Source: a virus
Strand: one strand, 5' to 3'
Length of the DNA: 64,000 nt
IMG/VR virus record: IMGVR_UViG_3300025154_000082
Span: 4,296-68,295 of that record
Shown: positions 7,799 through 57,641 of the stretch, piece after piece
Layout: each line of letters opens with the position of its first letter
Numbering within the stretch: position 1 is the first letter of the stretch
Translations under genes and position numbers: made by a program
Notes under the pieces: model-generated
What the model was told of the DNA's origin: nothing
Databases searched by the model: none
What the model saw: the letters and a program-made list of their open reading frames with translations, nothing else

Positions 7799-7842
7799 GT
7801 GTGTTTTTGTTGTTGGCAAAACATGGAGAGAAGGTTTTTATT

Positions 7843-8772
7843 ATGAATATGATTAGAGATCCAAAGAAGTTAAGAAGAGTTCCAATCAAAGAAGAATTAG
7901 TTGAAATTACAGGTGATTACATTAAGGCAGTTATTTTGCAACAATTTATTTACTGGTCAGAAAGAACCAAAGATTATGACCAATTTGTTTTAGAAGAAAA
8001 GTTTCAGGCCGAAAGGTGTGGATATGAATACAAGGCAGAATTGAAAAACGGATGGATATTTAAGAGTTCTGAACAACTATCAGAAGAAACTATGCTTAGA
8101 TTAAAACATACCGCAATGCGTACACATATTAAGGTATTAGTGGATAAGGGTTTTCTATCTGAGAGAACTAATCCTCTTGATAAACGGGATAGAACCATAC
8201 AATATCGTGTGAACATTTTAGCAATACAACTTGATCTACTAGAACATAACTATGTCTTAGATGGATATTCTAGTCCAATTAATTTTGAAACTCTTATGGA
8301 AGTTATCCACAAGAAAAAGCAATCTCGGAATGCGGAAATGCAAACATCATTAAATGGAAATGCTTCATCAGAATGTGAGATTGCACAGCCGGAAAACAAT
8401 AATGGCATAGAATATGGGGTTGAAGACATAATTGCATTCTCGGAAAACGGAAATGCATCTCCGCAAATATGCAATGCAACTAGCGAAAACATGCAAGCAT
8501 TACCAGAGACTACTTACAGAGATATATATCTTATTGATATTAATCGCGTGTGGGAAGAGGTTGTGGATAACTTGAGAAAGAAATTGTCTCCTGCTTCTCT
8601 GTCTGCTTGGATATTACCCATCATACCAGAAATACAGGAGACAAAGTTAATACTTAATTGTTCAAGTCAATTTGCTGTGGATTGGATAGAGGGAAAATAT
8701 CTTAGTATGATTGTTAATTGTTTGCCTGAAAATAGTGGAATTAAGGATGTTGTTGTATGTGAAAGTTCTTAA
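7843..8772 (+). CDS. RepA_N-like plasmid/phage replication initiator (winged-helix N-terminus)
   Basis: RBS ggagagaagg before ATG 7843 (ORF track starts upstream at 7801); N-terminal IKAVILQQFIYWSERT ... GWIFKSSEQLSEETMLRLKHTAMRTHIKVLVDKGFLSERT ... IQYRVNI resembles RepA_N wHTH; one of few plus-strand genes; ori-like repeats lie within its central region. Confidence 0.5.
   Translation: MNMIRDPKKLRRVPIKEELVEITGDYIKAVILQQFIYWSERTKDYDQFVLEEKFQAERCGYEYKAELKNGWIFKSSEQLSEETMLRLKHTAMRTHIKVLVDKGFLSERTNPLDKRDRTIQYRVNILAIQLDLLEHNYVLDGYSSPINFETLMEVIHKKKQSRNAEMQTSLNGNASSECEIAQPENNNGIEYGVEDIIAFSENGNASPQICNATSENMQALPETTYRDIYLIDINRVWEEVVDNLRKKLSPASLSAWILPIIPEIQETKLILNCSSQFAVDWIEGKYLSMIVNCLPENSGIKDVVVCESS
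8303..8571. other. putative origin of replication inside rep gene (DnaA boxes + iteron-like direct repeats + AT-rich tract)
   Basis: perfect DnaA box ttatccaca at 8303-8311 and inverted perfect box tgtggataa at 8562-8570; 20-bp direct repeat tctcggaatgcggaaatgca (8323-8342) / tctcggaaaacggaaatgca (8438-8457) in different reading frames plus ggaaatgc at 8356-8363; AT tract gatatatatcttattgatattaat 8521-8544. Confidence 0.4.
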
Positions 8773-16520: not shown

Positions 16521-16995
16521 ATCTCATGACTGAAGTCACGGATGTTCTTGTTGTCCACCATAAAACATCAACTTTATAATCAGCATAACTCACAGTTCTC
16601 TTCTGAAAATAAACTTTCATATCACTATCATCTTTAGGGGTTAACCAATAATATTTAACATTTTCACTATACTTAGGATTATTGAACCTATATTCTTGAC
16701 CAGATTTAACTTTAAGATTGGATTTTGATTTATCAAATTCAATAAATGCTCCATAATCACCAATTACAATACGATTATAACCATTTGATATGAGTGTATT
16801 ATTTAGACTATGTATTTTGAAATTAGTATCACCATTAATATTTAATTGTGATGGAAGATTGTCTAGATATTTTTGTCTAACTTCTTCTGATAGAGATGAT
16901 TTTAGTTTGCGATATTTATATTTTGCAGATAATTCTTCTTGGAATTGTAGTAAGTTTTCTATGTGGTTATTCCTCCTTTTCAATTTTACTCTCAA
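16519..16995 (-). CDS. hypothetical protein
   Basis: 158-aa ORF. Confidence 0.35.
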   Translation of the reverse strand: MRVKLKRRNNHIENLLQFQEELSAKYKYRKLKSSLSEEVRQKYLDNLPSQLNINGDTNFKIHSLNNTLISNGYNRIVIGDYGAFIEFDKSKSNLKVKSGQEYRFNNPKYSENVKYYWLTPKDDSDMKVYFQKRTVSYADYKVDVLWWTTRTSVTSVMR

Positions 16996-17217
16996 TCTTA
17001 TTAATGATTTCTAAAATTTCTATGCAAGCCTTTTTGTACCCTTTAGACCAAATATAAGTGCTTTCATTATAATGATCTTTGGAAAAATTATTAATGTGAT
17101 TAATTAACCATTGTTTAAGTTCTTTCATTTATGGTTTCTCCTTTCTTTAATTTATCACCTCCTTTCTGTGATTTATATTATGATTGTTCAATGTTGATTT
17201 TATATTTTATCTTCCAT

Positions 17218-17400
17218 TTAAAATTCCTCATCCAATGCTAGTTTCCAACATTCAGAGCACATTGTATCATTACTTGCAATACATTTATTATGTTGATTTT
17301 CATTTAATCCTACAGCGTTAGGGCATACGCCAAATAGATTACTAATTTTAGAATTTGATTCTAATTGCAGATATTCTATTAATTTATCTTTTCCTGTCAT
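17218..17400 (-). CDS. Cys-rich 60-aa peptide
   Basis: GVCPNAVG ... HNKCIASNDTMCSECWKL. Confidence 0.3.
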   Translation of the reverse strand: MTGKDKLIEYLQLESNSKISNLFGVCPNAVGLNENQHNKCIASNDTMCSECWKLALDEEF

Positions 17401-17406
17401 TTAGAT

Positions 17407-17676
17407 TCACTCCTTAATAAATTCTAATATATCCATCATGGCATATGTTCTTTGTGCGTCTTTTTCTACATCCCAAACATCGAGTAACCATTGGTTTTCT
17501 TTGTGGTAATCAGTACTGCCATAGTGGATTTGTTGAGGAATAATTGTTCTGATTGATGTAATACCTTGATAATTTTTATATTTTACTTTGATTGGAGGAT
17601 TTGCTGGTTTAGTTTGAATTATGTTTTCTTTTATTGCAACATTCATTACCGAATCATTAACTGCCATTTTTAACAT
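17407..17676 (-). CDS. hypothetical protein
   Basis: 89-aa ORF. Confidence 0.3.
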   Translation of the reverse strand: MLKMAVNDSVMNVAIKENIIQTKPANPPIKVKYKNYQGITSIRTIIPQQIHYGSTDYHKENQWLLDVWDVEKDAQRTYAMMDILEFIKE

Positions 17677-18209
17677 CCTTTCACTTTAGCAAGTTCTTTA
17701 TAAATATCTCCTATAATAAAATCTACTACGAGATTAGTTTTATTTAATACAGTATGAGGAAATTCACCATCTTTTAAAATATCTAGAATATGACCACTAA
17801 TAATTAAAGATTCTTCTTCAGTTTGCATTCTACCAACAGAGTCATATTCTCCAAGATTATTGATAAAATAATTCATATTATGATAAGTATTATGTGTTTC
17901 AACAATTAAACCTTTAAAATTAGAAGACAAATCTTTTCCATAATATAAAGATAGAAGAAGAGGTGAATCTGTAATAATAACATCCACTTTTCCTTTAACT
18001 GTAAACATTTTATGATTTTGTTTACCGAAAATATAAATCTGATCTTCTAAGACCTTAAAACTTTCTTCCCAAACTTTACTTTTTGCATATTCAGTAACAA
18101 GTTCACAACGAATACCTTGTCTTTTTAATTCATAGAATATTCCTGCTGAAGTGGTTGATTTGCCAGCAGATGGGCCTCCAAATATATTTACGACAATAGT
18201 TTTATGCAT
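17670..18209 (-). CDS. P-loop NTPase / nucleotide kinase-like
   Basis: Walker A GGPSAGKST near N-terminus, Walker B-like VDVIITDSP. Confidence 0.5.
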   Translation of the reverse strand: MHKTIVVNIFGGPSAGKSTTSAGIFYELKRQGIRCELVTEYAKSKVWEESFKVLEDQIYIFGKQNHKMFTVKGKVDVIITDSPLLLSLYYGKDLSSNFKGLIVETHNTYHNMNYFINNLGEYDSVGRMQTEEESLIISGHILDILKDGEFPHTVLNKTNLVVDFIIGDIYKELAKVKGC

Positions 18210-18218
18210 TGTTTATAT

Positions 18219-18563
18219 TCACTCCTTAACATATTCTTTAATTTCAATTCCTAATTTCTCTTCTAACCACTTTGATACTAAAAATCTATGACAGAATCCA
18301 CTCTTCTCCCAACATAATAATACAGCATTTTCACCTAATTCTTCATAGACATGTTGAGGATCTAATTTATCAAGAATTTCTTTTTGATATTGTTCAGTAT
18401 AGAATTGTTTATCACCATCTTCTTTGTATTTCTTAAAGAACCAGTACGATGGGGCTAACTTTTTATATTCTCTACCTTTATACCAAGTTGGACATTTACC
18501 TGCAATTGATACAGCATTATCTCCTTTATATTTTGCGTAGTAGGATGTTTGGATAGTGGGCAC
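18219..18563 (-). CDS. DUF488 (YeaO-like) family protein
   Basis: 114 aa; LAPSYWFFKKYK and AVLLCWEKSGFCHRFLVSKWL parallel YeaO APS and TLLYSAK..HA.VLADWL blocks; assignment tentative. Confidence 0.4.
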   Translation of the reverse strand: MPTIQTSYYAKYKGDNAVSIAGKCPTWYKGREYKKLAPSYWFFKKYKEDGDKQFYTEQYQKEILDKLDPQHVYEELGENAVLLCWEKSGFCHRFLVSKWLEEKLGIEIKEYVKE

Positions 18564-18656
18564 ACTCCTTTTATATAAACTTAAAGCTCCATTTATATTA
18601 GATTTAGTATACTATATAGTAATTGGATAATTGGTTAAACACCAGATGTAGTATTG

Positions 18657-19445
18657 TTAAATCCTTTCACATTTACATACTCCATCTTTATAACTTTCAC
18701 AGGGAATTATTTTTCCATCACACATCACAACTAATTTTTCTATTCCTGCTGTACATTTCCCATGTGATAAAGGAAGACCTAACTTGACAACATCTTTATA
18801 TTTAGTATATAAATGATCCATTTGCTCCTTTAAGATTCTATCATCTAATATTAAATATTGGTTGTTAACGCATCTCCCTTGATTAACTAGTTTTAATAGA
18901 TTTATCTTTTTCACACCTAAATTAATCAAATAATCTATTGTTTCTTCTAGTGTATAAATATTAATTGTCATTGGAACTATATGAACTTCGACATTCATAT
19001 TAGTTTTTAATGAATATCTTAAATTAGATAAGACAGTAGAATATAAATCTTTGTTTGCAATAAAGTTAAATATATTGTTTCTATTGCTGTAAAAGGGAAA
19101 AACAATTGTATTAATATATTTGTCAAATGATAATTTTTTTATATCATTACCCCACCATCCATCTCCAGAGGTATACATTTTTACTTTTACATTTTTAGTT
19201 TGTAGATATTCTAACAGATTATAAATATCTGGATATAATAATGGTTCTCCTCCGCTAAGATTTACCCATTCTGGATCGTATTTGTCAATAGTTTCTTTTA
19301 TTATGTTAATATCTAATTTATCTAGCTCGTCATTATAGTTAGAACTTGCATTAGTAGAGCAATGCAGACAATTATTAAAACATTTATTAGTTAGTTCAAA
19401 CGTTATCTCTTTTATATTGATCAACTCCTTTTCAAATGTCAACAA
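18657..19445 (-). CDS. radical SAM enzyme with C-terminal auxiliary Cys cluster (SPASM/twitch-like)
   Basis: CFNNCLHC (CxxxCxxC) at residues 22-29, LSGGEPLL glycine-rich SAM motif, C-terminal C..C.....C..C.C cluster. Confidence 0.65.
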   Translation of the reverse strand: MLTFEKELINIKEITFELTNKCFNNCLHCSTNASSNYNDELDKLDINIIKETIDKYDPEWVNLSGGEPLLYPDIYNLLEYLQTKNVKVKMYTSGDGWWGNDIKKLSFDKYINTIVFPFYSNRNNIFNFIANKDLYSTVLSNLRYSLKTNMNVEVHIVPMTINIYTLEETIDYLINLGVKKINLLKLVNQGRCVNNQYLILDDRILKEQMDHLYTKYKDVVKLGLPLSHGKCTAGIEKLVVMCDGKIIPCESYKDGVCKCERI

Positions 19446-19449
19446 ATGT

Positions 19450-19974
19450 TTATTTCGAAGTATTACTTAAAGTAATCTCTATCTTACAATCACTAATTAA
19501 TTGTCTATATTTTACTTCTGCCATATTTAGAATAAATCTAGAAGCAATTGTTTGTTCCATATCCTTATATTTATCACTTAGATATACTACTTCAGATATT
19601 CCAGATTGAACAATTGTTTTAGAACACTCATTACAAGGAAATAATGTGGAGTAAAGAATACATCCATTTAAATTATTTTTAGCATAAAGTATAGAATTTT
19701 GCTCTGCATGAATGACATATAGATATTTTCCTTCTAATCCTTCTTTTGATTCCCAAGGCATTTCTGAATCATTGCATTTGTTAGGCATTCCATTGTAACC
19801 AGTTGATATGATCCGATGATTAGTGTCCACTATACATGCTCCTACTTGTGTTCTTGGATCTTTGCTACGCAATGATGATATGTACGCAACGCTCATGAAA
19901 TAATCATCCCAATTTATTATTTGCATTTGGTTTTGTAGTCCTTTCTGTGAGGGGGTAGGAGAGATATATTTCAA
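19450..19974 (-). CDS. dCMP deaminase (cytidine/deoxycytidylate deaminase family)
   Basis: zinc-binding HAEQNS and PCNECSK motifs. Confidence 0.75.
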   Translation of the reverse strand: MKYISPTPSQKGLQNQMQIINWDDYFMSVAYISSLRSKDPRTQVGACIVDTNHRIISTGYNGMPNKCNDSEMPWESKEGLEGKYLYVIHAEQNSILYAKNNLNGCILYSTLFPCNECSKTIVQSGISEVVYLSDKYKDMEQTIASRFILNMAEVKYRQLISDCKIEITLSNTSK

Positions 19975-20139
19975 TCTCTGCTACTAAAAATATAGACAAA
20001 TATACTCAATTATCTATATCTAGATAATTGCTGATTCATAGTGTCTGTTTTTGTATTATTTCTAACACTACTCACATTTGGTGTAACACTCCACAGCCGT
20101 AAATTCCCGACTAGCCATCGGTATTTGATAATATTTGTT

Positions 20140-21319
20140 TTAAGCAACTTTAAATACTTTAGCATTCTTCAAATTTACACTTGCATTTTTATCACGATCA
20201 AGAATCATTCCACATTCTTTACAAATATATTCTCTATCTGAAAGTTTCAAATCCCTATCTATAGCACCACATTCACTACACATTTTACTTGAAGGAAAAT
20301 ATCTATCAACAATTCTTAACTCAATATTATTCCATGAACATTTATATGTTAATTGCCTTCTAAACTCATGAAAACTTTGTTCGGCGACTGCTTTAGATAA
20401 ATGCCTATTCTTCATCATCCCCTTGACGTTCAAGTCTTCGATCACTATATACTCTGGTTTGTTTTTCACCAGAATATTTGTGATTTGATGAGCATAATTT
20501 AAACGAATATTGGATAATTTTTGATAAATAGTTCTGATTTGAGCTTCTAACTTGATAATGTTTTTAGTTTTAATGAACTTCTTGCCATCTTTGTTCATTT
20601 CGTATTTTTTAGAGACTTGACGTTGAAGTCTTCTTAATTTTCTTTTAAGTTTCTTTACAGCAATAGTCTTATTGATATTTTTGAATGGTTTATCAATATT
20701 GCTGATAATTGCCAAATCCTTAACCCCTAAGTCAATTCCAATTCCTTCATTACTAACATTTGAATAATTATTATTGTCTACAATATCACACAGTACAGAA
20801 ACATAATACCTTCCTGCTTTCATTGAAACAGTACCACTTACTACTTTTGCATTGGTTGGAATATATCCTTTTTCTTTCAGTTCGACAAATCCTAAAGTTG
20901 GAATTTGTATTTTATGACGTTTAACAGTCCAGTCACCCTTCCCATTCTTAGGAAAATAGATATTAACATCTTGATTTTTCTTCTTCTTGAATCTAGGGAA
21001 TTTAGCTTGCCCCCTTAAAGAATCTTTTATATGCCATTTCTGCATTTACGATTGCTTTCTTTCTTGCCTTTGACCCACAATTATCAATCCATTTGAATTC
21101 ATCTAATACTTTTACTTCATTATTAATATATTTATCAAAATCATTGGCACTCATAAACGCTTGTTTCTTGTCAATCTTACCTTCTTTGTATAATTTATAA
21201 AGTTCTTGATTCTTAGTTAAATAAGAATTATAGAGGAAGCGACATATGCCAATTGATTGATGAATTTTATTAATATGAATTTCGGTTACTCTGAGTTCAG
21301 TTTTAAATCCTTTGAGCAT
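20140..21319 (-). pseudogene. tnpB: tnpB with single-base frameshift in poly-G tract
   Basis: ORFs 21002..21319 and 20140..21045 join as ...AYKRFFKG/QAKFPRFKKK if the GGGGG run (plus-strand ccccc 21011-21015) is GGGG; C-terminal zinc ribbon CSECGAI...CKECG. Confidence 0.55.
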
Positions 21320-21490
21320 ACTACCTTCCTCCCTTCATTAAATAATTTTAAATGTTCATCTGTATAATAACGTCTGTCAGTAGGTGTTCTAAATTCTTTT
21401 AATTTACCTTTCTATATCACATCTTTGATGCGTTTTGACTGACACACCTAACATTTCTGCAAAATCATGTGGTTTATAATTGCTCATGCA
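21320..21490 (-). pseudogene. tnpA: truncated IS607-type tnpA (MerR-like HTH only, extra A in homopolymer)
   Basis: minus-strand frame MSNYKPHDFAEMLGVSVKTHQRCDIE(R-stop) continuing after removing one A as GKLKEFRTPTDRRYYTDEHLKLFNEGR; no serine-recombinase catalytic domain follows. Confidence 0.4.
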
Positions 21491-21579
21491 CTCAACCTCC
21501 CTGAGTATATCTTAACACTTATAAACACATTTGTTAATGTTTTTGGCAATCATTCCTAACTCTCCTTTTTGTATTATAA

Positions 21580-22182
21580 TTACTTAATAAAATGTTCTAC
21601 AGCAATTTTACTCCAAGATTCTAACTCTCCTTCAAAATTAAGTAAATCATTTTTAGAAATCCAATCACCAACTAAAGTGTCTGTTTCTTTTACACTAATA
21701 TCTAGTCCTGCAACTTCAACAACATACACAAGGCCCAAATGGACTGAATCAACCTCTGTATTATTTGAGCAAATCATACCAATTAGATCAATAGATTTAA
21801 TACTTGAATTGATATTAATTTCTTCATCTAATTCTCTCATCATACCTGACTTGATGTAATCATCATCAGTGCCATCTACACGCTCTAGATGCCCTCCTAC
21901 GCCTAGAGAATACTTACCTGTGAGTCTTACATCACCTTCTAATCTACGAGTGATGAAATAGTTATCAGCACATTTTACTAAGCAATAAGGGATTATTTGT
22001 CTATGCTCAAAATTCAATTCTGCATCATAACGAGGAATGAATTTCCCCACTGAGTTAAAAATATCACTATATTTATTGTCTTTGTCTAATTCAACGAATG
22101 TATCAAAATCTTTTGTCAATTCATTGCTTACTACAAATACTTCAACGTCGCCATATTTAGCTTTTAATTGTTCTTTATCCAT
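21580..22182 (-). CDS. Nudix-like hydrolase (degenerate Nudix box)
   Basis: GGHLERVDGTDDDYIKSGMMRELDEEI approximates Gx5Ex7REUxEE. Confidence 0.35.
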   Translation of the reverse strand: MDKEQLKAKYGDVEVFVVSNELTKDFDTFVELDKDNKYSDIFNSVGKFIPRYDAELNFEHRQIIPYCLVKCADNYFITRRLEGDVRLTGKYSLGVGGHLERVDGTDDDYIKSGMMRELDEEININSSIKSIDLIGMICSNNTEVDSVHLGLVYVVEVAGLDISVKETDTLVGDWISKNDLLNFEGELESWSKIAVEHFIK

Positions 22183-22212
22183 TATTAATTTCCTCTTTTC
22201 ATTTTATTTATT

Positions 22213-25200
22213 TTAGCACTTGCTATATCCACAAACACAACTAATACAGCCACTAATATGTTTCAATTTAATACCACAGTCTGGACATTTATCTTTTTCA
22301 TCAGGTTCCAATTTTTCTTCATTTGATAATTTAGCAATAGGTTTAATACTTGCACTTAATTCTCCATTGATAAATTTTAGCATTTGTTTTGCTATAGAAT
22401 CCGCACAACTTTTCCCGATAGTCTTATCTTTTTTTCTAGCTTCTTTACTCACATCGCAACTTACGCTTTGAAGTTGATCAATTACTTGCAGAGGATCAAC
22501 ATTTGCTCTTAATAATAATGATACAGACCTACTCAACCCCTCTGTCATTCCGCGACAGCCTCCGGTACTTCCTGATTGAGAAAATATTTCACATAAATTA
22601 TTATCATTGTCATATACAAGTGTTAACCACATTGATCCACATCCAGTTTTAATTTTTAATCTTACTGAATTGGCAATATCTAATGTTTCATTAATCAAGA
22701 CATATTTTTTATCTTCATCAGTTGAAGAAATTTTACCTCCTGAAAGGGTTTGATTTTGTCTTGACCCATCTCTATAGACAGCTAATCCCTTAAGACCTTC
22801 TTTCCAAGCATAAATGTAAATATCATATATATCTTCTACACTAGCATTACTTGAAAAATTGACTGTTTTAGACAAGGATAAATCTACATGTTTTTGCAAA
22901 ACTGATACCATGTTCACATGTTCTTTAGGAGATAAATCATGAGCAGTAACAAAAATATTTCTAATTTCTTTAGGAATTTCTTTTATTCCTTGACATGAAC
23001 CATGATTATTTTCAATCTTACCCATTAGTTCTTCAGAATAAATCCCCAATTCTTTAAGTTTGTTTTCAAAGGTTGGATTATTTATAAAATAAATATTATT
23101 ATCATATGTCCTACGACTGTATGTAAGACCAAATTGTGGTTCGCAACCTCCAGAAACCCCTGCTAGAAATGATATTGTTCCATTGGGGGCAATTGAAAGC
23201 AATGAACTATTTCTAACTTTCAATCCCTGTTGTTGCCATTCACTACCTTCCCAAGCAGGGTAAACTCCTCGTTCTTCTGCTAAATCCATTGTAGCTTTTA
23301 AGGCATTGTCTTTCATTACTTTAATAATTCTCTCTGCGAAATCATAACCTTTTTGAGAATTATATTTAATTCCTAATACATACAGAGCATCTGCCAAACC
23401 CATCATTCCCATTCCAATGGGACGAATCGCTTCAGTCATTTGTTGAATTTTGGTTAGTGGCAATTTATTAATAGAAATCATATTATCAAACCATCTAATC
23501 GCTTTATATGACAAGATTTTTAATTTATCCCAATTAAATTTACCATCTTTGATACAAGCATATATATTAATACTACCTAAGTTACATGAAGAATTAGGTA
23601 TATTACTAAACTCATTGCAATTATGGACATAAGCTCCATTTGTAATTCCCATATGTAACTCATTTTCTGTAAAATCCCATACTTCTGCTTCATCTAGTTC
23701 AGAGATTAATATCACTGTTTCAAATTTTTCATCTAGTTTGTTTTGGTATTCTAGATAGCCATTTTTATAGTCTTGAATAAATCCAATTTCATCAAGGAAT
23801 TTTTTATAGGAATTTCTACTAATAACAATATGGGCAGATTGTTTACAAGTATAAGTCCCATTGCTAAATTCTATATCATTCTTTTTATTGTGATACCACA
23901 ATTTGCCTTTAACACCAAACATCAATAACATTTGTTGAACCTGTTTCAACATTTCTGTATTAATAGATACTAATTGAATCCTATGATGTTCTTTTAAATT
24001 GCATCCATTTGCACTAAAAAGTCCAATCAAAAAATCTTTCATTTCATTTTTAGGAAGAGTCATAATCCAATCTGGTATCATACGATCATCAATTTTATCA
24101 TAAAAAGCATTAGCGTATACAGTACCATAGGGGATATTTAAGACATGATTTATATCTTGCTTGTTAGAATCTTTTGCGTAAAACTTTTCTCCTAATTCTT
24201 TTTCTATTAAAATCATTGCTTCTTTATCTTTTTCTGGATTTGCAAAAATATATTTCATTCTATTAGATGCTTTATGGAATGTTGCATCTCCAAATTCAAA
24301 ACCTAAGACTTTATAATTTACATGAGGGTATAGATTATTTCCGATCCATTCTTTTTCTTTAATTTCAAAAGCAATATCTTTTCCAATTAAATCAATTGCT
24401 TTACACCAACTACCATCTTTAAGCATAAATTTATGATCTTCAGTAGTAGTGTACTCATAACCACTTTTAGTCATAATTTTATATACTTTTTTTATGCCTG
24501 TTTGCCATGTTTTCGTAGTTACATATTTTTCTCCATTCCACATCTTAGATTTAATATTGCTAATTTTCTCTAAACCATTCTCAGTTACCATATAAGTATC
24601 TTTGTGTAAACAAGGATTTGTAAAAATTAATGTACTTAAATGTTTATTGGGATTATCCGCATCCATGCGACTTTGATAATTCGCTCCGGGTTCTCCTGTC
24701 TCCCATGAACATCTTGCAATTTCTTCTAAAATTTCTTTTGCTTTTAATGTCTGATACACAATGGTTGGATAACCTTTATCTTTCCACCACTCTAAATCTC
24801 CATTCCATTCTTGATTATAAATTTCCTTATTCCATTGATAATCAGGAAACTCTAGATTCCAATCTTCATCATTTTCTACAGCCTTCATAAAATCATCAGT
24901 AAGAGAGATAGAAATATTCATTCTTTTTAATTCACTTGTATTGTCTTTACTATGTATAAAATCTAATAATTGAGGATGCCAACATTGAAGATTTATTTTT
25001 AAAGCGCCTTTTCTTGATGGATTAAATTTAGTCATATCATCAGCAGTTCTATCATATTTTCCCATAAATGTAGTAACTCCACCAGCATATCCTTTAGATG
25101 TATCTACTTTTGCTTTTGCAGGTCTTAATACACTAATATCTGTTCCTGCACCACCATTGCGTTGAAAAATCTTACTAAATTCTGCATCTAACAAACATAT

Positions 25201-25479
25201 GTCTTCTATATTATCTTTCGTTTGCAAAACAAAGCAAGATGATAATTGGCCTGGATTATCTTTATCTGCGTTTAACAAAACGGGTGTACTAAATATGAAT
25301 TCCAAATTAGACATTGCTTCATAAACTTCTTTTTTAATCTGTTGTTTTTTATCATTAGTTTCTACTTCTGCAATTGCAGTTGAAACCCTTTCACATAAAT
25401 CTTCCCAAGTTTTTTCGTTTTCTTTAAAGTATTGTTTTTCTTTAAGTAATTTCAATGCATCTTCTGAAATAGTTGTCAA
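22213..25479 (-). CDS. nrdJ: class II (adenosylcobalamin-type, monomeric) ribonucleotide reductase NrdJ, intein-containing
   Basis: after intein removal active site reads TNP-C-NEFSNIPNSSCNLGSINI (cf. NPCGE...CNL of class II RTPR); C-terminal zinc ribbon CPDCG...CISCVCG. Confidence 0.7.
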   Translation of the reverse strand: MTTISEDALKLLKEKQYFKENEKTWEDLCERVSTAIAEVETNDKKQQIKKEVYEAMSNLEFIFSTPVLLNADKDNPGQLSSCFVLQTKDNIEDICLLDAEFSKIFQRNGGAGTDISVLRPAKAKVDTSKGYAGGVTTFMGKYDRTADDMTKFNPSRKGALKINLQCWHPQLLDFIHSKDNTSELKRMNISISLTDDFMKAVENDEDWNLEFPDYQWNKEIYNQEWNGDLEWWKDKGYPTIVYQTLKAKEILEEIARCSWETGEPGANYQSRMDADNPNKHLSTLIFTNPCLHKDTYMVTENGLEKISNIKSKMWNGEKYVTTKTWQTGIKKVYKIMTKSGYEYTTTEDHKFMLKDGSWCKAIDLIGKDIAFEIKEKEWIGNNLYPHVNYKVLGFEFGDATFHKASNRMKYIFANPEKDKEAMILIEKELGEKFYAKDSNKQDINHVLNIPYGTVYANAFYDKIDDRMIPDWIMTLPKNEMKDFLIGLFSANGCNLKEHHRIQLVSINTEMLKQVQQMLLMFGVKGKLWYHNKKNDIEFSNGTYTCKQSAHIVISRNSYKKFLDEIGFIQDYKNGYLEYQNKLDEKFETVILISELDEAEVWDFTENELHMGITNGAYVHNCNEFSNIPNSSCNLGSINIYACIKDGKFNWDKLKILSYKAIRWFDNMISINKLPLTKIQQMTEAIRPIGMGMMGLADALYVLGIKYNSQKGYDFAERIIKVMKDNALKATMDLAEERGVYPAWEGSEWQQQGLKVRNSSLLSIAPNGTISFLAGVSGGCEPQFGLTYSRRTYDNNIYFINNPTFENKLKELGIYSEELMGKIENNHGSCQGIKEIPKEIRNIFVTAHDLSPKEHVNMVSVLQKHVDLSLSKTVNFSSNASVEDIYDIYIYAWKEGLKGLAVYRDGSRQNQTLSGGKISSTDEDKKYVLINETLDIANSVRLKIKTGCGSMWLTLVYDNDNNLCEIFSQSGSTGGCRGMTEGLSRSVSLLLRANVDPLQVIDQLQSVSCDVSKEARKKDKTIGKSCADSIAKQMLKFINGELSASIKPIAKLSNEEKLEPDEKDKCPDCGIKLKHISGCISCVCGYSKC
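23620..24612 (-). mobile_element. intein (331 aa) with LAGLIDADG homing endonuclease domain inserted at RNR active-site Cys
   Basis: begins with Cys (aa290) after TNP and ends ...VHN followed by Cys (aa621); LAGLIDADG blocks VLGFEFGDATF and FLIGLFSANGC. Confidence 0.65.
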
Positions 25480-47503: not shown

Positions 47504-48637
47504 TTAAGCACTTAATAATCTCATACCTTCATTCCTAATATTGATTGCTGCATTCACATCTCTATTATGATATGAATTACACTCTGGACAATCCCATTCT
47601 CTAATAGATAAATCTTTTACTTCAATGTTTTTATAACCACAAACATTACATAATTGAGAAGAAGGAAAAAATCTATCTACTTTCTGAACAATCCTATCAT
47701 GCCATAATGATTTATATTGTATTATTCTAACAAACTCACTCCAAGATACATCATTAATTGCTTTTGCCAATTTATGATTCTTAACCATATTTTTAACAGA
47801 CAAATCTTCTAAGCAAATTATTTGGTTTTCTTTAATAAGCCTAGTTGATAATTTTTGTAAAAAGTCATTTCTTTGATTAGTAATCTTTTCATGAACTATG
47901 TTGAGTTTAATTCTCGCTTTATTCCGATTTTTGCTACCTTTTTTCTTCTTAGAAAGTTTTCTTTGTGTCTTTTTTAATTTATCTTCAAGTTTAGATAAAT
48001 ATTTTGGATTGTCAATAATTTCACCTTCTGACGTAATCGCAAATTCTTTTAATCCTAAATCTATTCCCACAATGTTTTTATTGTTCTCGAATTCTACAAC
48101 ATCTACTTCAGTACAACATATAGATACAAAATATTTACCAGAACAAGTCTTAGTAATAGTGCAATTCAATATTCTCCCTTGTATTTCTCTTGATTTAGCA
48201 AATTTAACCAATCCAAGCTTAGGCAATTTAATTAAATTACCTTCAATTCTAATATTGTTGTTAGTTAAGGTAGTTCTATAACTACACTCATGATTATGTT
48301 TAGATTTAAACTTAGGAAATCCCTGATCTTTATTACCATTCTTAATTTCTCTAAAGAAATTTTGATATGCTCTGTCTAAATCTTTTAAAGAATTCTGTAA
48401 AGCAAATTTATCTATTTCCTTTAACCATTCTTTTTCTTTTTTAAGAATAGTTAAATCCGCAGAACAAGCATTATAATTCATAGATTTTTGTTCTGTTTTA
48501 TATAGTTCAATTCTTTTAGCTAAATAGTTATTATAAACAAATCTGCAAGATCCAAATGTTTTTGCTAATTGTATTTTCTGATTTTCATCAGGACATAATC
48601 TAAACTTAAATGCTTTTTCTGTCATAAATAAATTCAT
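47504..48637 (-). CDS. tnpB: TnpB (OrfB) RNA-guided nuclease-family transposon protein
   Basis: 377 aa; N-terminal MTEKAFKFRLCPDENQ, RuvC-like blocks, C-terminal zinc ribbon CNVCGYK...CPECNSYHNRDVNAAINI. Confidence 0.8.
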   Translation of the reverse strand: MNLFMTEKAFKFRLCPDENQKIQLAKTFGSCRFVYNNYLAKRIELYKTEQKSMNYNACSADLTILKKEKEWLKEIDKFALQNSLKDLDRAYQNFFREIKNGNKDQGFPKFKSKHNHECSYRTTLTNNNIRIEGNLIKLPKLGLVKFAKSREIQGRILNCTITKTCSGKYFVSICCTEVDVVEFENNKNIVGIDLGLKEFAITSEGEIIDNPKYLSKLEDKLKKTQRKLSKKKKGSKNRNKARIKLNIVHEKITNQRNDFLQKLSTRLIKENQIICLEDLSVKNMVKNHKLAKAINDVSWSEFVRIIQYKSLWHDRIVQKVDRFFPSSQLCNVCGYKNIEVKDLSIREWDCPECNSYHNRDVNAAINIRNEGMRLLSA

Positions 48638-51992: not shown

Positions 51993-52286
51993 TTAACTCT
52001 TCTTTTTAGTTGTAGCAGTCTTGGATTTAACAGTAGGTGATTTTGTACCAACAGGTGGTTTTATCACGTTAGAACTGCCTGTAGATGTCTTAGGTTTGAC
52101 TTTCTTGTGTTTGCTTTCACCCAAATCATCAAGATCCAAAACCTCATCTTCGAACCAACTCATTTCTTCATCATCGTCATCTTGTTGTGATTGCTGTATT
52201 TGAGGTTGTTGAACTTTATTAGATTTTGCCCCACAACCTGATAATATAAGGATTGGAATGATTGATGTGATAAGTAGTTTTTTCAC
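51993..52286 (-). CDS. lipoprotein
   Basis: GTG start; signal + lipobox MKKLLITSIIPILILSGC; Gln/Asp-rich and Lys/Thr-rich regions. Confidence 0.5.
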   Translation of the reverse strand: MKKLLITSIIPILILSGCGAKSNKVQQPQIQQSQQDDDDEEMSWFEDEVLDLDDLGESKHKKVKPKTSTGSSNVIKPPVGTKSPTVKSKTATTKKKS

Positions 52287-52333: not shown

Positions 52334-52362
52334 ATTATACATTATTTGATTATATATGTCAA
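52334..52362 (-). promoter_or_regulatory. consensus sigma-A promoter (TTGACA-17-TATAAT) for lipoprotein gene
   Basis: minus-strand TTGACA 52357-52362, TATAAT 52334-52339, RBS aaggag ~9 nt before GTG. Confidence 0.5.
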
Positions 52363-52373
52363 TATTTTATTTC

Positions 52374-53654
52374 TTACTTTACACTTATTCCTTCAATAGT
52401 TTTACTTAATATTTCTTCAATTCTATCAAATTCATAATACCAAATCTCAAGAAAATTATACTCTTTTTCTAAAGCGTATTCTTTCTTTCGTCTGTCATGT
52501 TCGACTTGTTTTTCAAAGTCTTTAATTGATTTATGTATTCCTTTTACAAATCTTTCATGCATTTCACCTTGATATTCTATAAGTAAATTATATTGAGATA
52601 AATAAAAATCATAAGATAATAAACATCCACCTAGACCAATTAGTCCTTCAAATGTTTTTTGTGGTATGTAATTTATTTCTTTGTCGAATAATTTCTTGCC
52701 AACTTCAATTTCACCTATTGAACATTGACATTCTGGACATCTAAAATCACGCGAATTAGAACCATCAATGTTTCTCTTATAGTCTTTATGTTTACCGTCT
52801 TTACATTTCCACCAAACTTCTTTACCACTACGAGGAGCATATTCGTATGGAGATTTTTTATTTTTATTAGACCATAAATTTAAAACTTCAGGATGTATAA
52901 TACCTAAACTATCTAATTTATGCAGTATATGATTATTATTACAGTATGAACATCTTCTATCATTATAAAAATTACATGGTGACACATCATAACTCCCATG
53001 GTGTTCTTTATCTTGGCATTTAATCCATACTTTATTTCTTGCACATTTATCAATCTTCCAAGGATTAACAGTGTTTTTATCATGATCCCAATACTTTTCT
53101 AAAAAATCTTCTCCTAGATTATCTACTCCCCATTGTGCAAACGAATTACATTGTTTGCATTTTATAGATCCTTCCTGTCCACCAGTAAAAGCATTAATAT
53201 TCTTTAATTCACTATTATGTAAACTTCTTGGGCATTTAAAATAATGTTTTTTATTTGTAGCAAAACCTATTTCATTTGGGTTCTTTTTATTTAACTCATA
53301 GTCCCATCTGTCAAGAATGTCTTGTCGATTATTTTCAATACACCATTGTTCAAAAGATTTGCCATTCTTTAATTTTGATATTCTAAATCTTTCCTGACCG
53401 CATTTTAGACAATAATATTTTCCATCTTCCTTCATTATTCTTTTATAACTATGCCATATTACAGGTTTGGTAATTGGAGTAGTACATTCTTTGCAATCAC
53501 ATTTGACGTTTACTTCCACAGGACTACCATCTGTCAAATCTTCCACTTTAACTTCAAATTCGTCACCCATCTTAGTATAAACATAACCCTTACTTTTATA
53601 CCACTTTATATTGTTTGAATTCCACCTAATAATAACATTTTTAGTTAATAACAT
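52374..53654 (-). CDS. zinc-ribbon-repeat + C-terminal DUF559/Vsr-like PD-(D/E)xK endonuclease
   Basis: three W-D-x-x-N...KC..H...C..C ribbon repeats; C-terminus SYDFYLSQYNLLIEYQGEMHERF...DRRKKEYALEKEYNFLEIWYYEF matches DUF559 pattern DFYLP..LaIEvDG..H; N-terminus paralogous to 5929..7434. Confidence 0.5.
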   Translation of the reverse strand: MLLTKNVIIRWNSNNIKWYKSKGYVYTKMGDEFEVKVEDLTDGSPVEVNVKCDCKECTTPITKPVIWHSYKRIMKEDGKYYCLKCGQERFRISKLKNGKSFEQWCIENNRQDILDRWDYELNKKNPNEIGFATNKKHYFKCPRSLHNSELKNINAFTGGQEGSIKCKQCNSFAQWGVDNLGEDFLEKYWDHDKNTVNPWKIDKCARNKVWIKCQDKEHHGSYDVSPCNFYNDRRCSYCNNNHILHKLDSLGIIHPEVLNLWSNKNKKSPYEYAPRSGKEVWWKCKDGKHKDYKRNIDGSNSRDFRCPECQCSIGEIEVGKKLFDKEINYIPQKTFEGLIGLGGCLLSYDFYLSQYNLLIEYQGEMHERFVKGIHKSIKDFEKQVEHDRRKKEYALEKEYNFLEIWYYEFDRIEEILSKTIEGISVK

Positions 53655-53683
53655 TACATCACTCCTTTTCTGTGCAGTATAAA

Positions 53684-56254
53684 TTATTTAATCATACTAT
53701 CGTTAATTTTATTTCCCAATTTACTAGCAGTTCTGATACTATCATCATCTTCCAAATTAACATCAAACTGTCCGACAATTGCTTTACTTTCTGCCATTTT
53801 ACGCTGATAACGCTTGATAATCCCATTCTCACATGAATTGTCGTAATAGAAATGAAAAATTCTGTTTTCTTCTGTGCTATTAGCCCTATAACCTCTTCTA
53901 TTTGACTGACTAACAACATTTACATGATAACTGGGCATATAATTCAAAAACGTCTGCAAAAATACAAGATTTAATCCTACTTGAACTAACATAGGGTTAG
54001 TTATCAATACTTGAAAATCATTTTTCTTTTTCTCAAGTAATTCCTTTCTTTCGTATGTAGGAATAGAAGGCTTCAGAGTAAAAAACTTAATATTATTTTT
54101 TGATAATAAAGATTCAATTCTTTTAGCAATAGTATCTCCCATCATATATTCCCCACCACCATTGAAATCAACATATATACAGCATTTTCTTCCTTCAAAA
54201 ATTTCTAGCAAAACTCTATCTAATATTGCTTGTTCTTTTGGTAAAATACAATTAGTAATACATTTTGGTTGAACTTCAGTATAACTTTCTTCTCCTCTAT
54301 TAATAGGAATACTACTCCAATTAAATGGATTGTTAACATAGTGTTTTAATATACTATCTTCGTACATTTTTGCATTAAAGGCATTAGCCGATTTAATATC
54401 ACTCCACAGATTGCGTTCTAAGCGTTCCATTTCGTCACTTTGACATATTGGTATGTAATACTCATTTAAGTCTGGCAAATCCTTTCCTAGATCGTCCAGA
54501 GTAGCAAATATGTAATTCTCTACTAAATATTTACTGAACACAATAGGGTTTATCCCTTCGATTTCTTTGAACTCGCTATCCTTTATTTCACTTCTACCAG
54601 AACGATAGTATTCTCCATCTTTCTTTTTGCTTACCGCCATTAATGTCCCATACGTCTTAATAAATTTCTCTATTTCCATTACATCATTTTCCTTTAGTTT
54701 ATTAGGTAACAATCCTAATAATAAATTAAATAAACTCGAACTATAACCATTATTACTGGTTCCTGAGTTTAATATTATTTTCTTAGCATAATTAAACAAT
54801 GTCCTAGTAGCATTCCCAATAATTGTCTGTCCGTTGCTCTCGTGAATTTCATCGCAAATCACACTGTCAAAATGAATATTCTTAGTTTTAATAAATCTAA
54901 TTAAACTACTTTTCTTTGTCTTATCGTATGTACTCTGCCATAATACAGCATCACAATTCGAACATTTATAATTTGATTTCTTAGGATTACCTTCAAAATC
55001 TTTCTGGGTGAAAAATACATCTTCCTTTTTTCTTAATTCATTTTGTAAAGGTCTTCCACAGTCTGGACAACAAGCGATAGTTATTTTCTCTTTAACATCT
55101 TTAATTTGTGAATAACTATAGTATCCACCACTCTGTACTTCTTTTTTATGTTTAATTTCCATTGTTCTAATGTTTACACCAGATATTCGTTTTGCATCAA
55201 GTTTAAATGTTTCTTTACCAACTAGAAAATAAGTTGGCTTATTAAATTTTAACCCAGTCATATTATATATTTGAATGAATTCTGATGTTTTCTTAATTAT
55301 ATGGATATCAATTTTATCTCCTACACTATTTTTTATTTCATCTTTCCATTGAGTTAATGTAATTGCTGGAGCCATAATTAATGTAACATAGTTTTGTTTA
55401 TTAGGATATAAATGGCAATGATTAATTTTTGTTGCATTCATTGTTTTTCCAAAACCTTGACTTAAAGCCAAATACACAAATCTGCTTCTTTTTAGGACTT
55501 CTAAAGCAGATTGAATAATAGGAACTTGACCATCAAATGGTTTCATCTTTCCTTCAAACATTTTTTGATTAATATTCTTAGGATCAAATAAAATTCTAAC
55601 ATTTTGTTTCAATCTATCTTTAATAGGATTTAAAAATGCAAGTATATAGTCCTGAATATCGTCAATTTTGCTCCAATCAAAATCTTCCTCATATCCTTCT
55701 AATGTCAAAGCATTTAAACTCTGTTTAAAATAAGTCACATTAATCTTATATACCTTTAAATCAGTATATAAATGATTATTGGTGTAAACTATACATTCGC
55801 TAACACAACCATAATTAGAAGATTTATATTTAGAATTATTAATTTCATCTTTATCCAAAATCATTTTAACAATCTCAGCAGTAACAGGTAAGTAATGAAT
55901 ATTTCTCAAATATTTTGTAAGAATCTTATTCTTATCTTCATTATTCCAATTAATACAATAATCATTTATTTTAGTATTATAAATAATTGTATGAGTTAAA
56001 TCATTATCCATTCTGTCCGACTTATAACGATAACGATTTTCTCTACCATACAATGTTTGTTCAAAGAAGATATCTTCTCTATCTCGTAAAGTAATATGAT
56101 AAGAATGAGAGATTAAATCGGAACATATTTTTCTATTCTTGATGTGTAGGTCGCATAGACTGATTAATATTGGATCTCCATTATCCAGTATAATTAAATC
56201 AGCATTACAATTGATAGTATTTTTATCTGTTGTTCGCAAGTAAGGAATCAACAA
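53684..56254 (-). CDS. SF2 DExH-box helicase (ResIII/SNF2-like) with inserted CxxC...CxxC zinc ribbon
   Basis: TTG start immediately after MTase stop with embedded RBS ggaggtg; motif I LSQGFGKT, II ICDEIHE, VI QSNRRGYRA; CCPDCG...CSNC insert; ~250-aa N-terminal region of unknown function. Confidence 0.65.
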   Translation of the reverse strand: MLIPYLRTTDKNTINCNADLIILDNGDPILISLCDLHIKNRKICSDLISHSYHITLRDREDIFFEQTLYGRENRYRYKSDRMDNDLTHTIIYNTKINDYCINWNNEDKNKILTKYLRNIHYLPVTAEIVKMILDKDEINNSKYKSSNYGCVSECIVYTNNHLYTDLKVYKINVTYFKQSLNALTLEGYEEDFDWSKIDDIQDYILAFLNPIKDRLKQNVRILFDPKNINQKMFEGKMKPFDGQVPIIQSALEVLKRSRFVYLALSQGFGKTMNATKINHCHLYPNKQNYVTLIMAPAITLTQWKDEIKNSVGDKIDIHIIKKTSEFIQIYNMTGLKFNKPTYFLVGKETFKLDAKRISGVNIRTMEIKHKKEVQSGGYYSYSQIKDVKEKITIACCPDCGRPLQNELRKKEDVFFTQKDFEGNPKKSNYKCSNCDAVLWQSTYDKTKKSSLIRFIKTKNIHFDSVICDEIHESNGQTIIGNATRTLFNYAKKIILNSGTSNNGYSSSLFNLLLGLLPNKLKENDVMEIEKFIKTYGTLMAVSKKKDGEYYRSGRSEIKDSEFKEIEGINPIVFSKYLVENYIFATLDDLGKDLPDLNEYYIPICQSDEMERLERNLWSDIKSANAFNAKMYEDSILKHYVNNPFNWSSIPINRGEESYTEVQPKCITNCILPKEQAILDRVLLEIFEGRKCCIYVDFNGGGEYMMGDTIAKRIESLLSKNNIKFFTLKPSIPTYERKELLEKKKNDFQVLITNPMLVQVGLNLVFLQTFLNYMPSYHVNVVSQSNRRGYRANSTEENRIFHFYYDNSCENGIIKRYQRKMAESKAIVGQFDVNLEDDDSIRTASKLGNKINDSMIK

Positions 56255-57583
56255 TTATTCACCTCCTAATTCCTTGATTACTAACTTACCATTATCTGAG
56301 CACAAAATATTCAAATAGGGTAAACTCATCTTAATAATCTTAGTTTCCGTATAACTTTCCCCACTATCATCTTTATATTTACTTACTTCTTTTTTCTCAA
56401 TACTCTTAGTTCCACCAATAGCAACATGTTTACCAGTACCATCTTCTAATGATATTTCTCCATTTATCATTCCAGATGCTAAGAGATTACTAATTTCTCC
56501 TAATTTTAATGGTTTAGGGACTACTAATTTTTCTTCTCCTAAATCTTTTAATTCTGTAATGCCTTTAACCCATTTCCATATTGAATCATTTTTACTGATA
56601 TGAGAAGTTGGAGATTCGATATATTTATTATTTTCTTTTGCTGTATTGTAGTCAATGTATGGATAATTCATTGATTGATATGTGTTGTATTGTGATAATT
56701 TAAATTCTGGTTCAGAGAGAATTATTTCTTTAACTTCATTGTATTGTTTAGTGAAATCCATTGCTTGCATAGTGTTAGAGAGGTCATAAGGAAATCGCTT
56801 TAGGTGAGCTACGAAGACATATTGCTTAAATTTAGCGTATTCTTCTGGATTTGTTTTATAGATTGAATTTTTGAGAATGTCAAAGTTTTTGGATAGAATG
56901 TCTAGAGAATCTAAGAAATCATCTTTTCGAATTATGCAGACGATGTAACCTGTTTTGTAATCTTTTGATGTTGTTGGGTTAAAAATAAGTTGACGGTCAA
57001 GTATCATTTGGAGATACATTTTTACATTACGTGTATTATTTGTCGAACCATAAGGAGGATTATAAAGCATTAAACTCACTATATTTTTCCCTATATTTAA
57101 TTCTTCAAATGACTTATTGTACGAATCATAAATGTTTGGGTTTGATTCAATTTCTTTATGCCGATTTTCTTCGATTTCATTAGCAACAAGAATATAATTA
57201 TTACTTGAATTTTTTCTAGGTAAAAATGAAGCAAAAGCGTCTAAAAATAATCCTTCACCAGCAAACAAATCAGCAACCACAATATCATGATTATTATTAC
57301 TTCCTAATCCATATTCACAATTATTTTTTATCATATCATAATCTTTATTATTTAACCACATGTCGTAGTACACATAATCTATTGGGACTTGGTTATCCAA
57401 GGCTTTTACAGCTAATTCTTGATATATTCCTTCTTTTGTATAATATTCTTTAAGATAGTTTTTCTTCAACCAGTCAATTTCTACTCTGCCAAGAAGTCCT
57501 AATAATCTATGTGCTTCTCCTAAATCTGTAGGATAGTACATGAGTTTTCCTTCAGCAGCTAAACTATTTCCCATATGTATCAA
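56255..57583 (-). CDS. gamma-class N6-adenine (NPPY) DNA methyltransferase
   Basis: motif I VADLFAGEGLFLDAF precedes motif IV LMLYNPPYG; size similar to M.TaqI-type enzymes. Confidence 0.65.
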   Translation of the reverse strand: MIHMGNSLAAEGKLMYYPTDLGEAHRLLGLLGRVEIDWLKKNYLKEYYTKEGIYQELAVKALDNQVPIDYVYYDMWLNNKDYDMIKNNCEYGLGSNNNHDIVVADLFAGEGLFLDAFASFLPRKNSSNNYILVANEIEENRHKEIESNPNIYDSYNKSFEELNIGKNIVSLMLYNPPYGSTNNTRNVKMYLQMILDRQLIFNPTTSKDYKTGYIVCIIRKDDFLDSLDILSKNFDILKNSIYKTNPEEYAKFKQYVFVAHLKRFPYDLSNTMQAMDFTKQYNEVKEIILSEPEFKLSQYNTYQSMNYPYIDYNTAKENNKYIESPTSHISKNDSIWKWVKGITELKDLGEEKLVVPKPLKLGEISNLLASGMINGEISLEDGTGKHVAIGGTKSIEKKEVSKYKDDSGESYTETKIIKMSLPYLNILCSDNGKLVIKELGGE

Positions 57584-57612
57584 CTCGTTTCTTATTTTGT
57601 AATTCTACAATA

Positions 57613-57641
57613 ATTATATCTTATTGTTTAATAAAAGTCAA
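57613..57641 (-). promoter_or_regulatory. consensus-like sigma-A promoter (TTGACT-17-TATAAT) for MTase-helicase-nuclease operon
   Basis: minus-strand TTGACT 57636-57641, TATAAT 57613-57618. Confidence 0.5.

Follow-up and report, generated by a model that had tools for sequence, protein, structure and literature searches.

A 64,000-nucleotide (nt) stretch of viral DNA (IMG/VR virus record IMGVR_UViG_3300025154_000082, positions 4,296 to 68,295; hereafter the window, numbered from its first letter) carries three consecutive minus-strand open reading frames (ORFs) of 442, 856 and 426 amino acids (aa) at 52374..57583. We read them as a two-gene methylase-Snf2 dyad, with a function like that of the phage P1 protein DarB, and a homing endonuclease gene that has separately invaded it. 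Taken as a whole, this reading is likely; its structural part, a two-gene dyad plus an unrelated homing endonuclease, is very probable, and the prospect that the pair serves anti-restriction is roughly even. The three ORFs, the promoter-like site ahead of them, the stop-start junction (TAA/TTG) between the first two and the 29-nt spacer before the third are all present on the minus strand as the initial annotation described them.

The methyltransferase-helicase pair

The first gene (56255..57583, -; 442 aa from a TTG, or 439 aa from the alternative start ATG at 57574) encodes a gamma-class NPPY methyltransferase of the N6-adenine type. Motif I (VVADLFAGEG, 57280..57251, -) stands about 65 residues ahead of motif IV (NPPY, within 57067..57044, -), which is the gamma order that had been reported for this protein, and both motifs are invariant in the 24 homologs on which invariance was judged; so short a distance leaves no room for an intervening target-recognition domain. 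The invariant positions of the family comprise an N-terminal YPT (57541..57524, -), DxFAGEG, NE and NPPY, and a beta-rich C-terminal domain (about 56527..56303, -) is strongly conserved, with the signatures PKPLKxGE..ASGxINGE, HxxxGG and PYLNIL. The family is small, with 336 cluster representatives at E <= 1e-3 among 1.84 billion. Against Pfam DUF6094 the window protein scores 18.5 bits, under the gathering threshold of 22.8; 12 of the 24 homologs match this family at E <= 0.01 (best 6e-7), and in searches with a profile of the methyltransferase family true DUF6094 proteins come up, at 1e-15 to 1e-9. By these comparisons the methyltransferase appears to be a divergent sister group of DUF6094 and not a formal member. 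In the literature we found a single passing mention of DUF6094, with no functional data.

Searches of PDB sequences, single and profile, gave no useful match for the methyltransferase or for the product of the third gene, and fold searches were therefore used for both. The methyltransferase model (predicted local distance difference test, pLDDT, 80) matches amino-methyltransferases in general, and its longest alignments, of 190-214 residues, are with the DNA N6-adenine enzymes M.BseCI, EcoKI M, BsaXI and TaqI.

The second gene (53684..56254, -) encodes a predicted 856-aa ATPase/translocase of the Snf2 clade of helicase superfamily 2 (SF2). Its start is the TTG at 56254 or the one at 56251; since homologs start MIPY, the second TTG may be the real one. 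The earlier description of a DExH helicase is borne out by a Walker A motif (GFGKT, within 55465..55439, -), a DEIH motif II (within 54859..54839, -) and Pfam matches to ResIII and SNF2-rel_dom (25.4 bits, cut-off 24.9). Motif VI lies within 53914..53882 (-), and a four-Cys zinc ribbon is inserted within 55075..54947 (-). Walker A, DExH, SGT and QxxRRGxR are invariant in the homologs, and the best matches of the helicase profile among PDB sequences are Snf2-family remodellers (5hzr, 3.5e-15). The N-terminal stretch of about 200 residues matched no family, and Pfam, PHROG and NCBIfam searches found no nuclease domain on the helicase. One helicase homolog (P0235, 1188 aa) carries a LAGLIDADG_3 domain, probably as an intein, a further sign of the helicase gene as a favoured target of selfish elements.

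The two genes are tightly joined. The methyltransferase stop codon TAA (56257..56255) abuts the helicase TTG at 56254, with the ribosome-binding site GGAGGT embedded in the 3' end of the methyltransferase gene; the coupling holds with either TTG start, and in relatives the two genes overlap by 4 nt or stand a few nt apart. For a census of this linkage, 122 related loci were fetched via the methyltransferase, the helicase and scans of genomes, viromes and metagenomes, and were tallied by tblastn. The unit of count was the distinct helicase allele, of which there are 79, and the evaluable subset varies by question (74, 56 or 50). The methyltransferase gene lies directly upstream of the helicase gene in all 74 evaluable alleles, down to 30-42% identity, which bears out the coupling noted in the initial annotation. 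The gap within the pair is mostly a few nt and reaches about 36 nt, with L114 (101 nt) and the loci L039 and L040 as exceptions.

Fusions tell the same story. Protein P0385 (1417 aa) joins orthologs of both genes, its helicase part being 40% identical over the full length, and in P0458 (1199 aa) a helicase of the same type (hhalign probability 99%) is fused to DUF6094. Searches returned 128 matches for the methyltransferase and 165 for the helicase. The pair occurs mostly in large phage contigs classed as viral and is also present in a Virgibacillus profundi prophage; the genes that flank it are mosaic among relatives. Distant pairs of DUF6094 and a DEAD/SNF2 helicase are found on Bacillus cereus-group plasmids; 311 plasmid records contain a match to the helicase, and 116 of these are typed as conjugative. 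The two genes are thus a co-translated, occasionally fused pair with intact catalytic motifs.

A PcfJ-like gene (60743..61897, -) was considered as a third partner and rejected, because it lies near the pair in only 6 of 27 representative loci, the window's contig included, within the 6-10 kb of flanking DNA fetched for this survey; its product is probably not a partner of the pair. In the window this gene lies 3 kb upstream of the module, and in the V. profundi prophage it directly follows the helicase gene (L003 14124..15512). A distant version of the pair is carried by the 188-kb record of Cetobacterium somerae 'plasmid p3' (L126; NZ_CP143322.1, record 16915..22658), where homologs of the methyltransferase (598 aa) and the helicase (743 aa) have two small genes between them. 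A DnaB-like helicase gene adjoins this pair, for which reason the record may be a phage-plasmid.

The homing endonuclease and its insertion scar

The third gene (52374..53654, -) begins 29 nt after the helicase gene, and the spacer holds an AAGGAG ribosome-binding site. Pfam, PHROG and fold searches point to a free-standing homing endonuclease of 426 aa, its activity being predicted. Its N-terminal DNA-binding region consists of three DUF4379 treble-clef zinc-finger stretches (Pfam), and a predicted structure places a Vsr-like nuclease domain of the EDxHD type at the C terminus (about 52718..52395, -). The protein had been described as a zinc-ribbon endonuclease of DUF559/Vsr-like type; the zinc fingers and, by structure prediction and fold search, the Vsr-type fold stand, while Pfam DUF559 is unmatched in it, so that the relation to Vsr holds at the level of fold only. 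The PHROG matches (phrog_559, phrog_9084) are labelled 'homing endonuclease' or 'HNH endonuclease', and among the 170 phage records that the protein matches, some are annotated as VSR homing endonuclease. Residues of catalytic type (D349, E360, H366 and E385-H386-D387), candidates for the composite EDxHD motif, are invariant in 21 homologs (alignment A3).

The AlphaFold2 (AF2) model of the endonuclease (pLDDT 85) has as its top Foldseek match 3r3p_B, the structure of I-Bth0305I (template modelling score, TM, 0.75 over the target, probability 1.00, E = 2e-3, 23% identity), with Vsr itself (1cw0 and 1vsr) at ranks 2-3. I-Bth0305I is the prototype of the Vsr-like 'EDxHD' homing endonucleases (Taylor et al. 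2011, PMC3239194). Profile searches of the window protein against PDB sequences did not detect it, which places this relation, too, at the level of fold. Both proteins have the nuclease domain at the C terminus, belong to large Firmicutes phages and occur sporadically beside or inside conserved genes of DNA metabolism; unlike I-Bth0305I, which is intron-encoded and has NUMOD-like modules, the window endonuclease is free-standing and has DUF4379 zinc fingers.

The distribution of the third gene differs from that of the pair. Only 5 of 56 evaluable distinct alleles have a homolog after the helicase gene, and none is present in relatives whose methyltransferases are 78%, 55% and 41% identical to that of the window; when loci are ordered by helicase identity, from 70% to 87%, those with the gene are interspersed among those lacking it. 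The co-occurrence that the initial annotation proposed to look for in other genomes thus holds for the methyltransferase and the helicase and not for the third gene, which, being mostly absent downstream, is not part of the system. With 2197 matches its family is over tenfold larger than that of the helicase, and homologs of 52-55% identity have DNA polymerase III alpha on one side and a RecD2-like helicase on the other, or have YonJ- and YonG-like neighbours. In 4 of 50 evaluable alleles the methyltransferase gene is immediately preceded by a shorter gene that encodes the same nuclease domain, so that the module has been invaded from both ends by this endonuclease family. The shorter gene, of about 255 aa, overlaps the methyltransferase start by a few nt (L063 3924..4691; also L018, L060 and L071).

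How the third gene arrived can be read from alignments with endonuclease-free loci, L015, L021, L039 and others, which keep the same downstream gene as the window. In many endonuclease-free loci this gene, which encodes a 97-aa protein (51993..52286, - in the window), follows the helicase stop directly with its TTGACA-17-TATAAT site. Endonuclease-free helicases end ...KLG(K/E)KI(N/S)EGxxxK*; the endonuclease-bearing ones, in seven lineages, end ...KINDSMIK* or a variant, of the type ...IN(D/N)SxIK*. In the window the endonuclease ORF itself ends ...SKTIEGISVK*, and its last six codons and stop (EGISVK*, 52374..52394, -) are an insertion scar, the displaced original 3' terminus of the helicase gene: the scar GAAGGAATAAGTGTAAAGTAA is identical at 20 of 21 nt to the helicase 3' terminus of the endonuclease-free L021 and L039. 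The inserted cassette, of about 1.3 kb (52395..53699, -), comprises a replacement helicase tail (..DSMIK*, 53699..53684), the 29-nt spacer with AAGGAG and the body of the endonuclease ORF. The breakpoints were set by inspecting and translating both junctions, and the cassette boundaries are approximate.

Two other loci, L123 and L005, retain a duplicate: there the endonuclease ORF continues into a second copy, 80-88 nt long, of the helicase 3' end (...GQFDVNLEDDETIRTASKLGKKI...). In L048 (8611..9717) the endonuclease is cut off inside the nuclease domain (...LIEFHGGTT*) and is probably a decaying copy. Because the helicase tails differ, and because of the scar and the duplicated helicase 3' ends, we conclude from the aligned sequences that the endonuclease gene arrived as a cassette of about 1.3 kb, giving the helicase a new tail and displacing the old one. 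It has invaded the last helicase codons, brought a replacement tail with it and come to read out through the displaced original tail. Presumably it cuts the endonuclease-free helicase alleles of co-infecting relatives and spreads by recombinational repair; the candidate target is the helicase 3' end of the L021/L039 type, around ...AAGATTAACGAAGGAATATGTGTAAAGTAA.

Invasion, co-conversion and decay together are a hallmark of free-standing homing endonucleases. The likeness extends to the seg and mob genes of T4-like phages ('intronless homing'), which also lie between or at the ends of conserved genes, are patchy in occurrence and co-convert their flanks, the shared distinct tail of the endonuclease-bearing helicases being the counterpart here. 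Unlike the seg and mob products, which are GIY-YIG or HNH enzymes, the window endonuclease has a Vsr-like nuclease, and its ORF runs on through the displaced terminus of the gene that it targets. Judged by sequence and by the structural model, the third gene appears to be a homing endonuclease and a parasite of the module, not a nuclease subunit.

The window holds further elements of this kind. A 501-aa paralog of the third gene (5929..7434, -) lies beside an actin-like segregation gene; over about 190 N-terminal residues it shares 41% identity with the third gene product, and it matches phrog_4538, phrog_9084 and phrog_559. The large subunit of ribonucleotide reductase (22213..25479, -; 1088 aa) is interrupted by an intein with a LAGLIDADG_3 homing endonuclease (Pfam Intein_splicing at about residues 315-620, LAGLIDADG_3 at residues 481-566) and ends in a TSCPD domain. 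About 1.8 kb upstream of the methyltransferase is a gene for a 187-aa HNH_3 (AP2-type) endonuclease (59355..59918, -), probably another free-standing homing endonuclease. At 47504..48637 (-) there is a TnpB / IS605 OrfB gene with HTH_OrfB_IS605, OrfB_IS605 and Cas12f1-like TNB domains, different from the TnpB gene of L039 and L040 discussed below.

Relation to known systems and function of the pair

A 'DNA methylase-helicase dyad' has been described in phages, plasmids and conjugative elements, with DarB of phage P1 as its archetype, and its translocase has been proposed to carry the methylase along incoming DNA, which would thereby be protected from restriction (Iyer et al. 2017, PMC5512222); a protective role has also been ascribed to orphan methyltransferases in phages and plasmids (PMC11541004). 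On sequence grounds the window pair is a split version of this dyad. Like the published dyad, it combines an adenine-type, EcoKI/TaqI-like NPPY methyltransferase with a SWI2/SNF2-clade ATPase, the coupling of the two is visible in conserved neighbourhood and in fusions, and the contexts are phage, prophage and plasmid. DarB, by contrast, is one polyvalent protein of 2255 aa, where the window has two translationally coupled genes of 442 and 856 aa; a Pfam search found neither LPD36 nor other polyvalent domains in the window proteins, and the zinc-ribbon insert and unmatched N-terminal domain of the helicase set it apart from DarB as well. Nearer counterparts are the pairs of Bacillus cereus-group plasmids (e.g. 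pBTHD521-5, NZ_CP010111.1), which have the same methyltransferase branch, helicase type and gene order. These DUF6094 pairs are only 22-24% identical to that of the window and have a small gene between the two partners; unlike theirs, the window methyltransferase has an extra N-terminal helical region of about 95 residues and falls below the Pfam threshold. Both components of the locus, a methylase-Snf2 dyad and a Vsr-like homing endonuclease, are of known kinds, and no member of the dyad family appears to have been characterised.

In the DarB-like reading, the methyltransferase and the helicase would form a complex, perhaps through the C-terminal domain of the former and the N-terminal domain of the latter. 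The ATPase would track along the phage's own double-stranded DNA (dsDNA) and so deliver the methyltransferase to target adenines fast and processively after infection, and host restriction enzymes would then meet modified phage DNA. We infer each element of this scheme: the DNA substrate, complex formation, the coupling of methylation to translocation, and the anti-restriction role itself. A DarB-like anti-restriction module was an alternative offered in the initial annotation, and it may be taken as the best current reading of the two-gene pair only.

Several observations weigh against it. Homology to DarB is marginal: the helicase aligns with it weakly over 175 columns (hhalign probability 78%, E = 1.9e-5) and the methyltransferase only at NPPY (probability 2%, 33 columns). 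We therefore class the pair as DarB-like in its mode of working and place it outside the DarB family itself. P1 virions carry DarB, which acts on DNA as it enters and shields it in cis from Type I restriction; the genes of the pair would be expressed only after entry, and this leaves a window of vulnerability. The tight coupling is not obligatory, for in L039 and L040 a TnpB gene is inserted between the methyltransferase and helicase genes (L039 4577..5770). The pair is unusually conserved, at 70-87% identity between phages with differing neighbour genes, and it has repeatedly been invaded by inteins and homing endonucleases, a pattern more typical of core genes of DNA metabolism and less so of accessory genes that counter defence. 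In fold searches the methyltransferase core also resembles the rRNA m6A methyltransferases ErmC' and METTL5, and NPPY enzymes can use RNA or protein substrates.

The main rival for function takes up the conservation and the invasions: the pair would serve the phage's own DNA metabolism or expression, marking DNA for replication, packaging or timing, or remodelling transcription complexes in the manner of RapA. That the pair is conserved far more than the neighbouring genes would agree with such a role, as would the repeated arrival of an intein (P0235) and of homing endonucleases, which are usually aimed at conserved core genes, in a window otherwise rich in replication genes. Plasmids and conjugative elements, however, commonly bear related dyads, which are read there as early anti-restriction functions, and the module stands among variable small early genes, outside the replication block. 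We regard this role as rather improbable.

A less likely reading, which we hold to be distinctly doubtful, makes the pair a phage- or prophage-borne module of defence or superinfection exclusion, akin to BREX or DISARM, in which the methyltransferase would be the marker of self and a Snf2-type ATPase would share in an interference that does without a dedicated nuclease. The combination of an adenine methyltransferase with an SF2 translocase is shared with Type I and Type III restriction-modification (RM) systems, with Type ISP enzymes and with class 1 DISARM (DrmMI and DrmD), the last pairing its adenine methyltransferase likewise with a Snf2 helicase, DrmD; the pair also occurs in a prophage and on large plasmids. 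In PADLOC the helicase gave short matches only, around Walker A, to DpdE (E = 3.6e-4) and DrmD (E = 0.066), spanning about 58 residues, and the methyltransferase and the third gene gave none. As PADLOC and NCBIfam scans of the three proteins returned nothing meaningful, the known defence systems are rejected, in agreement with the initial annotation, which had seen that the gene set matches none of them and that the motif order excludes a Type III Mod. The gamma-class methyltransferase is unlike the beta-class Mod and the helicase lacks a nuclease domain, in contrast to Type III; neither in the module nor next to it, in the window and in related loci, is there an HsdS specificity subunit or a nuclease-bearing HsdR as in Type I. 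Of the partners that mark DISARM, BREX and Dpd (DrmA/B/C, PglZ/BrxC/BrxL and DpdA-K), none is conserved near the pair; the neighbours are unrelated small genes in mosaic flanks. The only nuclease near the pair is a mobile homing endonuclease lacking in most relatives, which is unlike RM systems, and the prevalence of the pair in large viral-classed contigs also speaks against a defence module.

That the methyltransferase instead acts on RNA (m6A or m2G) or on protein glutamine, with the ATPase as a remodeller of RNA or ribonucleoprotein, we think very unlikely, since tracking along dsDNA is what the characterised members of its partner's clade, Snf2, do, since its longest structural alignments are with DNA N6-adenine methyltransferases, and since two DUF6094 relatives also match Pfam N6_Mtase. 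Weakest of all is the proposal of the initial annotation that the three genes form one novel restriction or exclusion system, with the methylase marking self, the helicase as translocase and the Vsr-fold protein as the nuclease against foreign DNA: the ORFs are contiguous and co-oriented between two promoter-like sites, each with a ribosome-binding site, and the arrangement recurs in the window, L005, L048, L078, L087, L123 and L128, but the census of co-occurrence largely refutes it, the third gene being absent downstream in 51 of 56 evaluable distinct alleles, and the large endonuclease family with its unrelated contexts, the insertion scar, duplicated helicase ends and one decayed copy (L048), the homing endonuclease as nearest structural relative and the lack of a PADLOC match make it extremely improbable.

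Genome setting and significance

The window has a G+C content of 28%, and nearly all of its genes lie on the minus strand. Its replication functions include a DNA polymerase, a DnaB-like helicase, an ExoV/Dda-like helicase and ribonucleotide reductase; no tRNA genes were found in it. Exact counterparts of the window are metagenomic contigs of 150-178 kb, at least one of them from a groundwater metagenome, and its close relatives are catalogued as viral contigs. Queried by megablast with the region and with the replication block, 50,697 phage records gave no match, and the phage is therefore without a close sequenced relative in that collection. Against phage records, tblastn with the methyltransferase gave no match and tblastn with the helicase gave four weak partial matches only, to unannotated faecal phage contigs. 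The window also encodes an actin-like (ALP_N/MreB-like) segregation protein (4954..5922, -) and a protein with a DnaA_N domain (7801..8772, +), and the presence of these two genes suggests that this large phage may be maintained in the manner of a plasmid, that is, have a phage-plasmid lifestyle.

The pair sits in a run of small early-type genes behind a predicted sigma-70-like promoter of the methyltransferase gene (57613..57641, -; TTGACT-17-TATAAT, 11/12 positions, intergenic). At the downstream edge of the unit lies the promoter-like site of the 97-aa gene (52334..52362, -), a perfect TTGACA-17-TATAAT, also intergenic. Promoter-like sites across the region are not above chance (40 against an expected 42.5 +/- 6); within 6.3 kb just these two, at 57641..57613 and 52362..52334, reach 11/12 and 12/12, and they bracket the unit. 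A site of at least 10/12 that ends 32-56 nt before the methyltransferase start is present in 22 of 58 distinct related loci, distant ones included. Of the self-contained operon first envisaged there remain the two best promoter-like sites at its edges, and on these the term 'self-contained' has to rest, because no intrinsic terminator was predicted in the region; the third gene, moreover, is an insertion. The TTGACA-17-TATAAT site of the 97-aa gene is kept in sequence and in position, right after the helicase stop, in endonuclease-free relatives, and this conservation makes it appear that the small early genes have individual strong promoters.

We advance only tentatively a wider view, in which the pair would be a distinct and widespread machine of large Firmicutes phages, phage-plasmids and Bacillus cereus-group plasmids, a non-packaged analogue of DarB that, after entry, methylates the DNA of its own element in a processive, ATP-driven way, and in which the endonuclease invasions would drive its horizontal sweeps between co-infecting phages by co-conversion. 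Independently of that view, a false lead has been removed, in that the locus is not a new restriction system of methylase, translocase and nuclease, and the case shows that selfish endonuclease genes can mimic operon membership by inserting themselves beside conserved genes. Judging by the scar and the duplicated target ends, the helicase 3' end holds a candidate homing site. As a compact module of two genes, the pair is well suited to a test of the published, unproven idea that Snf2 translocases drive the protective methylation of mobile DNA; if the idea is true of this pair, DUF6094 would thereby gain its first function.

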